DNA of 64,000 bases from an uncultured Peptococcaceae bacterium (GCA_963931105.1 OZ007004.1:622973-686972); one strand, 5' to 3'; shown: positions 13,632 to 40,316, numbered from the stretch's first letter. Notes: generated from the letters alone by a model not told the origin. Translations and numbers: made by a program.

Positions 13632-13782
13632 GCAGCCACTGCTGCGGCAAAGATAAAAACGCAAAGCGCCGTTCGCGCGAGAGCCGGTAGGTAGCCCGGC
13701 CGTCTCACACTCGTGAGGTAAGTAACCTGCCCCTCCTGGGTTGTCCATTCTTTGTCCATCTTTTTCAAAAGGAGGGACCAAG
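13632..13782 (+). promoter_or_regulatory. structured 5' leader of the yjdF-family gene (yjdF-type riboswitch candidate, translational)
   Basis: Extended -10 TGGTATAAT at 13617-13625. Several hairpins. CCCUCCU (13731-13737) is complementary to the RBS AGGAGGG (13770-13776). Confidence 0.4.
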
Positions 13783-38100: not shown

Positions 38101-38646
38101 CTAAAGATGCGCGATCGCCACTTCCGCCGTTACCGAGGGATTGTGGCGCACCGGATCAAAATAATCCGCCGTCGTGAAAAGAAACTGACACTTCACACGA
38201 TCGCCCGCTCTGTAGCAGGCGCTGTCCGCCGGCACATCCACCGTCGCCACAAGCCGCCCACCAAGCTCCTCCAGCGTGCGACGACTGGCAGCATTATCCG
38301 GGTTGCAGGTGATGATACACTCACCCAGCCCCAACTCGTAAGCAAAATGCAGGAGCAGCCGCGTCGCCTTGAGCGCATAGTGATTGCCGCGATGCGGCCT
38401 GTAAACACGATAGCCCACATGTCCGGAATAGGCGATCTCTGGATGCATTCCCACGCGCAGATCGCAATGTCCCAGCTCGCGGCGCATCTCCGTCGCATCA
38501 ACGATCTTGAAAAAATAGCTCGGCAGCTCGCCAACATACGCCGATCCCCACTGATACTGTCGCAGCAACAGCTGGATCTCGCCGTCGCTGAGATGCGACG
38601 TGTCCTGTGCGCGCAACGGATGCAGCAGATTTTTGAAAAATGCCAT
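38101..38646 (-). CDS. GNAT family N-acetyltransferase
   Basis: 181 aa; ...GYRVYRPHRGNHYALKATRLLLHFAYE... Has its own TGGTACAAT extended -10 at ~38672-38680. Confidence 0.75.
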   Translation of the reverse strand: MAFFKNLLHPLRAQDTSHLSDGEIQLLLRQYQWGSAYVGELPSYFFKIVDATEMRRELGHCDLRVGMHPEIAYSGHVGYRVYRPHRGNHYALKATRLLLHFAYELGLGECIITCNPDNAASRRTLEELGGRLVATVDVPADSACYRAGDRVKCQFLFTTADYFDPVRHNPSVTAEVAIAHL

Positions 38647-38701
38647 GGAATCGTCCCCCCGATCCGTGTCGTTATCTGCATTGTACCATAAAATCAGGCA
38701 T

Positions 38702-38738
38702 AAAAAAACAGGCGCCAGGAGGAAAGCTGGGCGCCTGT
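38702..38738 (-). terminator. rho-independent terminator of the RNA candidate
   Basis: CAGGCGCC..loop..GGCGCCUG followed by U7 on the minus strand. Confidence 0.85.
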
Positions 38739-39160
38739 GAACTAAGGAGGACCAGGCGAGAGCAGCCTGGCGTGTGAAACCGCTTTTTGACCGTCGGAAA
38801 TGATCCTTCTGTGCACAAAAGGCTCGGGCGTATGCATGACGGTTGCACCTGGGCAGCCCGGTTTTCCGCGATCACGGATGGCTGAGAAGCATCGCAGGTC
38901 CTCATTATGGCTATGGAATACAGCGGCGGCTGGACACCGCGGCATTCGTACAGAGAAGCGCCTGGCGACAGCGTCTGGAGCTACCGTCGCCACAGCGCGA
39001 TTCTCTTTGTCCTACAATTGCAACCTTCTCATACAATCTCCTTCCGTAGGAAACGCAGCTGCAGCTCCAACCGGATCCGTGAACGGTGTCCCCTCCTATC
39101 ACAGAGCGCCGGCCTCTATAGAGTGCTGCGTCAACAGAGGTGCGGTTCGTCGTCCTCTGT
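38702..39160 (-). ncRNA. unclassified ~460-nt structured RNA candidate (independent transcription unit)
   Basis: No credible ORF on either strand. Consensus promoter upstream and a strong terminator downstream. Multiple perfect 6-10 bp helices. Confidence 0.5.
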
Positions 39161-39167
39161 TAAACCT

Positions 39168-39196
39168 ATTATAGTACTATGTTATGCCCGTTGCAA
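39168..39196 (-). promoter_or_regulatory. sigma70 promoter of the RNA candidate
   Basis: TTGCAA-N17-TATAAT read on the minus strand. Confidence 0.6.
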
Positions 39197-39354
39197 GCAT
39201 CTTTTTTCCTACATATTCAGTATCGTTTTGCAATCTCCTGCCAGCAACCGGAAAATACGGCAACAGCTTTCCTTATTATAAGGAAGAAAAACGTCACATT
39301 CACACCAAAAGCCGCATCAGCACGCGGTTTTCCAGCGCTTTGCACTGCGCGCGA

Positions 39355-39675
39355 TCAATGCCCACTCGTTGCCTTGAGACCGATGATGCCCACGAGAAGC
39401 AGGCACACAAAAATGGCGCGCAGAGGAAACATCGCTTCCTTAAAAAGCAGCATGCCAACGACGACAGACCCCAGCGCGCCAATGCCTGTCCAGATCGCGT
39501 AGGCGGTGCCCATCGGCAGCGTTTTCATGACATGGCTGAGCAGCCCAAAGCTCACAAGCATGCCAGCAATGGTCAGCGCCGTGTAGAAATGCTGCGTAAA
39601 ACCGTGGGAGAGTTTCATACACGTCGCCCAGAAAACCTCAAACAATCCCGCAATAAGAAGATAGACCCAAGCCAT
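39355..39675 (-). CDS. sugE: SMR family transporter, SugE/Gdx (guanidinium exporter)-like
   Basis: MAWVYLLIAGLFEVFWATCMKLS...GTAYAIWTGIGALG; 106 aa, 4 TM, conserved Glu in TM1. Confidence 0.9.
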   Translation of the reverse strand: MAWVYLLIAGLFEVFWATCMKLSHGFTQHFYTALTIAGMLVSFGLLSHVMKTLPMGTAYAIWTGIGALGSVVVGMLLFKEAMFPLRAIFVCLLLVGIIGLKATSGH

Positions 39676-39894: not shown

Positions 39895-39929
39895 AATATA
39901 GTAAATCTATGCTGAAAGGGGTATTGGAA

Positions 39930-40070
39930 ATGTCCAAACATATCAAAACTATCAGCGCTCAGAAACTTCAGAAGACCCTGAAGACTGGCGGCTGCGGCGA
40001 ATGCCAGACCTCTTGCCAATCCGCTTGCAAAACCAGCTGCACGGTTGGCAACCAAGTATGCAAGCACTAA
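39930..40070 (+). CDS. scfA: SCIFF (six-cysteines-in-forty-five) ranthipeptide precursor
   Basis: MSKHIKTISAQKLQKTLKTGGCGECQTSCQSACKTSCTVGNQVCKH. The core GGCGECQTSCQSACKTSCTVGNQ matches the SCIFF family as I remember it. RBS AAAGGGG. Absent from the supplied ORF track (<60 aa). Confidence 0.9.
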   Translation: MSKHIKTISAQKLQKTLKTGGCGECQTSCQSACKTSCTVGNQVCKH

Positions 40071-40080
40071 TCCCATCCCG

Positions 40081-40113
40081 AGACCTGCCTGTGGCGCGGG
40101 TCTTTTCTTTTTC
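40081..40113 (+). terminator. rho-independent terminator (first of a tandem pair)
   Basis: AGACCUGC-loop-GCGGGUCU followed by UUUCUUUUU. Confidence 0.75.
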
Positions 40114-40124
40114 AAATGCAGTTG

Positions 40125-40160
40125 AGATCGCTCGAGGGTTGTAGGGGGCGATCTTTTTTA
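40125..40160 (+). terminator. rho-independent terminator (second of the tandem pair)
   Basis: AGAUCGC...GCGAUCU followed by UUUUUU. Confidence 0.65.
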
Positions 40161-40316
40161 TTCCCAGTGGCTCAGTCAGAATATGACAATCCGTTGAACG
40201 ACGTTCATCAAAATTTTTAATGTCCCGCCATCTGGTATTCTAAAATTATTGTGCTATAATAATTATTTGCCATTATAAAGTAGTAGAAAAAAGTTTTTGA
40301 ATGGAGGTTGACATCT

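Follow-up and report, generated by a model that had tools for sequence, protein, structure and literature searches.

The window analysed here is the whole 64,000-nt stretch of DNA from an uncultured Peptococcaceae bacterium, and all positions are counted from its first letter. Within the window a sugE-type SMR gene ends at 39355 and a GNAT gene (Acetyltransf_3) starts with an ATG at 38646, and the gap between them (39354-38647) measures 708 nt rather than the ~480 bp estimated earlier in a reading made from the DNA alone (the sequence-only reading); all of this is read on the minus strand. Downstream of GNAT are two half-transporter genes whose closest likeness is the heterodimeric exporter TM287/288. 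Upstream are sugE, a SCIFF precursor gene and a DHA2 MFS efflux gene, and with these flanking genes the neighbourhood is an efflux/detoxification locus. The SCIFF gene encodes a six-cysteine ranthipeptide precursor (39909-40070, plus strand; TIGR03973, 84 bits) and lies between the DHA2 MFS gene and sugE; no adjoining radical-SAM maturase is evident in the ORF list, and its DNA is 96% identical in sister species. Weak, sub-threshold Rfam matches just past it (40040-40161, plus strand; anti-hemB, E 0.0035, and Trp_leader, E 0.03) are probably the terminator hairpin of the SCIFF gene. One strain carries, at L033:805-1668, an insertion of an IS element (rve integrase with HTH domains) in the stretch from the MFS gene to sugE.

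The sugE-GNAT gap contains a single-copy, GC-rich unit of ~460 nt that runs on the minus strand from a promoter to an intrinsic terminator. Its predicted features are collected in Table 1, and variation among strains was determined from an alignment of 36 contigs of the locus.

Table 1. Predicted features of the sugE-GNAT gap, in the order in which they are read
Feature	Positions	Strand	Basis and remarks
Terminator-like hairpin of sugE, CCGCGU-GCUG-AUGCGG then CUUUUGG	39312-39327	-	Scan; sugE-proximal edge of the insert, most polymorphic part of the spacer
17-nt palindrome TTCCTTAT-A-ATAAGGAA	39269-39285	.	~75 nt upstream of the element's -35
Sigma-70-type promoter TTGCAA-N17-TATAAT	39168-39196	-	Scan, 10/12 positions; predicted TSS ~39161
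5'-terminal hairpin AACAGAGGAC...CCUCUGUU	39131-39163	-	MFE and consensus folds; begins 2-3 nt past the predicted TSS
5' strand of the long-range ("P1-like"/antiterminator) helix, GAGGCCGGCGCUCUGUGAUAGGAGG	39091-39116	-	RNAalifold consensus
RBS-like GGAAGGAG and 6-codon mini-ORF MRRLQL-stop (39032-39012)	39012-39045	-	Sequence
Long bulged hairpin AGAGAA..UGGCGAC/GUCGCCA..UUCUCU	38952-39006	-	MFE and consensus folds
Helix 38873-38863/38800-38789 around two small hairpins	38789-38873	-	Supersedes a hairpin at 38897-38866
Candidate 31-codon ORF MHTPEPFVHRRIISDGQKAVSHARLLSPGPP-stop (AGGUG-N8-AUG ... PGPP-UAG)	38742-38837	-	Read from sequence
Hairpin CCAGGC-UGCUCUC-GCCUGG	38751-38771	-	MFE and consensus folds; invariant in all strains
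3' strand of the long-range helix, CCUCCUUAGUUCACAGGCGCCCAGCUUU	38723-38750	-	Shares the 5' arm of the terminator and extends just upstream of it
Intrinsic terminator CAGGCGCC...GGCGCCUG	38702-38737	-	GC-rich stem of 9-11 bp; U7 tract at 38708-38702
GNAT extended -10 TGGTACAAT (38688-38680), 5' UTR and G-rich RBS	38647-38688	-	Outside the insert; kept in sister species; pi 0.002

The promoter and the terminator had both been proposed in the sequence-only reading, and both held up when they were scored. The promoter is one of four promoter-like sites found in 2 kb, where 1.1 would be expected, and is intact in most of the 36 strains, being destroyed or deleted in L026, L047 and L048. The terminator folds at -17.9 kcal/mol (z -4.5) with a nucleotide diversity (pi) of only 0.0015, and its apical loop, CUUUCCUC, is anti-Shine-Dalgarno-like and invariant across strains; an automated terminator scan overlooked this hairpin solely because of the size of its loop. 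The terminator has the same orientation as GNAT and precedes its start codon by 55 nt, so that, as in a leader, an intrinsic terminator lies between the promoter and a co-oriented gene. GNAT also has an extended -10 of its own, as had been pointed out before, and this is conserved in sister species. Between sugE and the promoter of the element, the palindrome may be an operator; it is polymorphic among strains at 39285 and 39277 and is gone in the deletion variant L047/L048. A perfect 10-nt complementarity between 39264-39273 (AGGAAAGCUG, minus strand) and the terminator loop and 3' stem (38720-38729) would be relevant only given sugE read-through transcripts, and ~0.3 such pairs are expected by chance.

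Rfam 15 assigned the element to no family. At the gathering score the only match in the 64-kb window was a yjdF (azaaromatic) riboswitch aptamer at 13643-13764 (plus strand; 71.9 bits, gathering score 45), and at E<=10 the interval 38500-39500 gave just two chance matches to snoRNA models (E 3.4 and 7.5). The families searched included RNase P, tmRNA, SRP, 6S, T-box, riboswitches, OLE, ROOL, GOLLD, HEARO and raiA, none of which matched, and no known aptamer, T-box, RAT or ANTAR motif appeared in the element; the earlier statement that it belongs to no known RNA class is thus upheld by the Rfam searches.

Hundreds of human-gut metagenome contigs encode a GNAT protein of identical sequence. Sister loci were obtained by scanning the GTDB species representatives with GNAT, which yielded six MAGs named 'Peptococcaceae bacterium' whose GNAT is 75-84% identical, and one further sister species was reached via P0008. 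The element is absent from ten related Peptococcaceae loci as judged by synteny, blastn and nhmmer, and nhmmer with the strain alignment found nothing at E below 1 on the sister loci. In L014 and L015 the sugE stop is followed by ~52 nt and then by TGTGGTACAAT and GNAT, and in L011-L013, L016 and L017 sugE is also absent and the SCIFF peptide gene adjoins the GNAT promoter. What the sister species have in common here is limited to ~50 nt, the promoter and 5' UTR of GNAT, and ~650 nt (roughly 39354-38695) are therefore a species-specific insertion that fits exactly into the space from the sugE stop to the GNAT promoter. Absence outside the species leaves the proposal of a conserved structured RNA class without support, and the fold signal of the element, described below, is unexceptional for the genome. 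By these comparisons the element is a real but unclassified non-coding unit; it is an orphan of a single species and cannot be shown to be a new RNA class. Searches of plasmids and phages by blastn and two scans of IMG/VR found no related DNA, a JGI metagenome scan returned only five contigs, all of the same species and locus, and neither blastn nor nhmmer found a second copy elsewhere in the 64-kb window. A mobile, phage or plasmid origin was rejected on the empty plasmid, phage and IMG/VR searches, and a MITE or other mobile-element remnant was rejected because all contigs have the sequence at a single locus, with no second copy in the window and no terminal repeats.

This distribution is also what favours a neutral reading, in which the element is a lineage-specific insertion (a rearrangement relic or a horizontally acquired fragment) with promoter- and terminator-like signals that arose by chance; at most it would insulate GNAT from sugE read-through, and its structure would be an effect of GC-rich DNA. 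Such an insertion would be absent from the ten sister loci and without relatives in the collections searched, as the element is. Set against it is the fact that both signals, promoter and terminator, come close to consensus and stand in the correct order, and with the variation data given next we regard a neutral insertion as rather unlikely.

Within the species, diversity in the RNA body (39160-38739) is low. Overall pi is 0.0095, compared with 0.035-0.082 at the third codon positions of five flanking genes, 0.002-0.007 at first and second codon positions and 0.016-0.026 in three other intergenic stretches. The RNA body is thus 4-8 times less diverse than third codon positions, without codon periodicity, and it has fewer segregating sites than the other intergenic DNA (Fisher p = 3e-4) or the third positions of sugE and GNAT (Fisher p = 3e-7). 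Lowered diversity without codon periodicity argues for a non-coding function, whether the element is a leader or a free RNA. A neutral insertion could nevertheless have low diversity if it were young and had been spread by recombination rather than held by purifying selection, and the 5' half of the RNA body (pi ~0.014) is indeed close to other intergenic DNA. Youth alone does not predict, however, that diversity should range from 0.026 in the sugE-proximal 158 nt of the insert to ~0.005 in the 3' 250 nt of the RNA body, and this unevenness counts against a simple young insertion.

The positions of the SNPs were also compared with the predicted structure, numbering the RNA from window position 39165. 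All six common SNPs (RNA positions 2, 52, 92, 167, 173 and 295) are either unpaired or change U.G or G.U to Watson-Crick pairs in the consensus fold, with the caveat that this fold was fitted to the very SNPs that are counted in its favour. In the whole model 12 pairs vary with pairing kept, and one pair among 160 covaries; support from SNP covariation is therefore weak, as expected at 99% identity. That the common SNPs avoid or preserve predicted pairs, together with the one compensatory change, speaks against a neutral insertion and is compatible with a leader that depends on its fold.

Several strains have lost parts of the unit. A deletion of 39171-39282 in L047 and L048 takes out the upstream palindrome together with the -35 and most of the -10, and the RNA body of these strains differs from the window only at SNP sites that are variable in other strains as well. 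In L049 and L050 a deletion of 38957-39574, the junction of which is a 6-bp AGCGCC microhomology, removes the 5' half of the RNA, the promoter and two thirds of sugE, and in L026 the -10 box TATAAT is changed to TCTGTT. From these natural deletion and promoter-loss strains (L047-L050 and L026) the element appears to be dispensable in some strains. The large deletions agree with a neutral insertion, and the promoter-less and 5'-truncated variants weigh against a leader; a free RNA is likewise made less probable by strains that have lost the promoter and keep the RNA body unchanged. Single contigs of two strains have clusters of 4-6 substitutions within 20 nt, around the RBS of the mini-ORF in L034 (39046-39026) and at the -10 box in L026 (39182-39169), and these clusters reflect either errors of assembly or recombination over short patches.

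The coding potential of the gap was then considered, the sequence-only reading having found no credible ORF there, and this view stands. Six overlapping ORFs of the gap have no Pfam match, and a concatenated six-frame query had no match among 5.8 billion proteins. A phmmer search with the 124-aa frame against 1.84 billion representatives gave four matches, each of them an ORF called on the same locus in deletion variants or in an error-prone long-read contig, so that these searches gave no independent homologue. The contig in question (L046, 32 kb, from ENA) belongs to the same species and aligns to the locus at 91.7% identity with 234 gaps, and its frameshifted ORFs pass for a 'distant homologue' (48% identity) when proteins are searched. 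In the longest minus-strand ORF, of 83 codons, 4, 5 and 6 SNPs were counted by hand at codon positions 1, 2 and 3, whereas the flanking real genes have a 5- to 10-fold excess at third positions; the constraint on the RNA body is therefore not that of a protein. With no Pfam match, no protein homology and no codon-periodic substitutions, we rejected a protein-coding or decayed gene, the latter of which had been named in the sequence-only reading as a reason to abandon its proposal.

The same data bear on whether small proteins or leader peptides act here, with the position of the ribosome driving attenuation. The candidates are MRRLQL-stop at 39032-39012, MLLSHP-stop at 38892-38872 and the 31-codon ORF that ends in PGPP-stop at 38742. 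Their Shine-Dalgarno-like sequences are suitably spaced, a ribosome pausing on PGPP-stop would sit over the 5' arm of the terminator, and bmrCD provides a precedent (PMC4191407). Pfam and homology searches gave them no match, however, their Shine-Dalgarno sequences are paired in the fold model, and SNPs are spread evenly over the codon positions of the 83-codon frame. The mini-ORF, which the sequence-only reading had placed correctly, fares no better as the conserved leader peptide or dual-function RNA that was offered there as an alternative: a nonsense allele (C146T, CAA to UAA) occurs in L009 and an allele that weakens the RBS (G125A) in L001, and its RBS pairs with UUUCCU in the consensus fold model. 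The 31-codon ORF stops 5 nt before the terminator stem and has only 4 SNPs (2 synonymous and 2 non-synonymous), which are uninformative, and we can only speculate that its Pro-Gly-Pro-Pro-stop end belongs to a ribosome-stalling leader peptide. Of the readings considered, peptide-driven attenuation is the one to which we give the least credence.

On the minus strand the RNA folds with an MFE of -187.6 kcal/mol (z -3.49), and on the plus strand z is -0.84. In 128 windows of 460 nt taken over the same 64 kb and folded with the same kind of shuffles the mean z was -1.33 (sd 1.62), and 7.8% of them were at z -3.5 or lower. The MFE z-score lies within this genome background and was rejected as evidence of structure, a result that agrees with a neutral insertion, and helices paired by eye are fairly frequent in this GC-rich genome and are not evidence on their own. 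Four such helices had been listed in the sequence-only reading, and those at 39160-39134, 39006-38952 and 38770-38752 recur in both the MFE and the consensus folds. The fourth, CUGCGAU/AUCGCGG at 38897-38866, was rejected because T295C changes an A-U pair to A.C in 12 of 26 haplotypes. The helix that takes its place in Table 1 is paired in 99.7% of cells; in it T295C changes U.G to C-G in the 12 haplotypes, a C-G pair becomes U.G in 2, and a compensatory change from C-G to U-A occurs in L004, a degree of support that 17 of 500 shuffles reach. In the 5'-terminal hairpin 99.7% of cells are again paired, with two changes of G-C or U-G pairs to wobble or Watson-Crick pairs, and the two commonest linked SNPs, C167G and G173A, fall exactly in predicted bulges of the long hairpin at 39006-38952.

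The consensus fold also contains a long-range helix, in which RNAalifold pairs a 5' segment with the 5' arm of the terminator. The duplex has an energy of -37.6 kcal/mol; when the upstream RNA is dinucleotide-shuffled the value is -29.1 +/- 2.8, and only 5 of 1000 shuffles reach that of the duplex. Its target is the most extreme of 16 sliding 34-nt targets (z -3.1); the target was picked after the RNAalifold fold had been seen, and correction for the 16 windows gives p ~0.08, so that the evidence for this pairing is only suggestive. In the folds computed, the long-range helix and the terminator are mutually exclusive, again for a target chosen post hoc. When either structure is forced on the 464-nt RNA the two are isoenergetic (-185.9 kcal/mol with the terminator and -186.5 kcal/mol with the long-range helix). 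At lengths of 100-416 nt the 5' segment is held in a local hairpin, and at 445 nt, before the 3' arm of the terminator exists, the long-range helix is the predicted MFE structure. The common G52A SNP changes a G.U pair of this helix to A-U and strengthens it. The competing strand lies ~360 nt upstream of the terminator, and the domain enclosed is ~340 nt long.

From these results we tentatively prefer to read the element as a lineage-specific, cis-acting conditional-termination leader that would feed a regulated input to the GNAT/ABC-exporter operon. In the proposed mechanism, 39116-39091 would pair with 38750-38723 as a "P1-like" helix that closes the ~340-nt domain and blocks the terminator, and transcription from the promoter of the element would then run into GNAT and the two ABC exporter genes, in addition to that from their constitutive promoter. 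If the 5' segment were instead kept in its local hairpin, the terminator would form and an RNA of ~460 nt would be released. The balance between the two states might be set by a candidate ligand or protein acting on the enclosed domain, or by a ribosome stalled on the short ORF that ends at the terminator. The leader is favoured by the near-consensus promoter and strong terminator with the GNAT/ABC operon directly downstream, by the placing of the 5' segment on the terminator arm in the consensus, by the equal energies of the two folds with the antiterminator as MFE at 445 nt, and by an RNA body of lowered diversity whose longest ORF has no excess of third-position SNPs. The objections concern mainly the promoter of GNAT itself. 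GNAT retains its extended -10 downstream of the terminator, and orthologues at 75-84% identity carry only this extended -10 upstream, as their sole promoter; the leader is therefore unneeded for expression, it is not conserved together with GNAT, and a constitutive promoter downstream blunts any regulation. Its antiterminator strand is much farther from the terminator than in typical attenuators, and the complementarity was examined only after the RNAalifold hint. A bolder form of the leader, a newborn riboswitch-like ON switch of a new class and of a single species, in which a ~340-nt sensor domain with a P1-like 3' strand as terminator 5' arm would control an acetyltransferase/ABC-exporter detoxification operon, seems to us very unlikely.

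The sequence-only reading had preferred an independent transcript to a leader. That preference is now questionable, given a co-oriented terminator so close to GNAT and the unusual alternative partner of its 5' arm, and yet a stand-alone regulatory RNA of ~460 nt acting in trans, for example through its anti-Shine-Dalgarno-like terminator loop in the manner of RNAIII, is possible and in our estimate nearly as likely as the leader. Its own promoter and strong terminator, a stable 5' hairpin from about +3, the invariant terminator loop and the reduced diversity without codon periodicity are what one would look for in such an RNA; the fold z-score is strand-asymmetric (-3.5 against -0.8), and the GNAT promoter downstream is independent and is conserved without the element. 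Against this, no homologue was found in sister species or elsewhere, so that no conserved seed or target can be named, and a long-range helix that rivals its own terminator is not expected of a simple sRNA. RNAIII of Staphylococcus aureus is a lineage-restricted RNA of ~500 nt that folds into many hairpins, has a promoter and a terminator to itself and may contain a small ORF. The element resembles RNAIII in its size, many hairpins, restricted lineage and possible small ORF and in a pyrimidine-rich terminator loop capable of pairing with Shine-Dalgarno sequences, and differs in having no homology to it and no known targets or quorum-sensing context.

With the large intergenic RNAs of Firmicutes (OLE, GOLLD, ROOL, HEARO and raiA) the element has in common a length of several hundred nt, an intergenic location and a Firmicutes host; those RNAs, however, are defined by wide conservation and covariation, which the element does not have, and it matches none of them at E<=10. 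For the leader that we prefer, conditional terminators with mutually exclusive structures are known (PMC5314783). Like these riboregulators, the element has a promoter, a structured 5' region and a terminator just before an ORF, and the 5' arm of the terminator has an alternative partner, the two states being predicted here to be of about equal energy. It differs from them in that the partner is ~360 nt away and encloses ~340 nt without any known aptamer, T-box, RAT or ANTAR motif, that GNAT keeps a promoter downstream of the terminator, and that the element is limited to one species. In Bacillus subtilis the BmrB leader is a ribosome-mediated attenuator upstream of the heterodimeric exporter bmrCD (PMC4191407), and there too a leader with short ORFs and a terminator is found upstream of a heterodimeric ABC exporter of the multidrug type. 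The two have no sequence similarity, GNAT stands between the present leader and the exporter, and the leader ORFs of the element are unsupported by the variation among strains.

With some signs of constraint and a plausible design for an attenuator, the element is best classed as a leader or regulatory RNA specific to its lineage. Its host bacterium is found in hundreds of human-gut metagenomes, and the natural deletion and promoter-loss strains would be ready-made controls for expression studies. If it is neutral, the element is a caution that DNA without a conserved RNA can nonetheless have a strong terminator, a promoter of consensus type and a good number of helices paired by eye. If it is functional, it would be a regulatory RNA gained by one species and inserted with precision after an efflux gene and before the promoter of a detoxification/efflux operon, and it would show how fast attenuator- or sRNA-type regulators may arise beside resistance-like genes.
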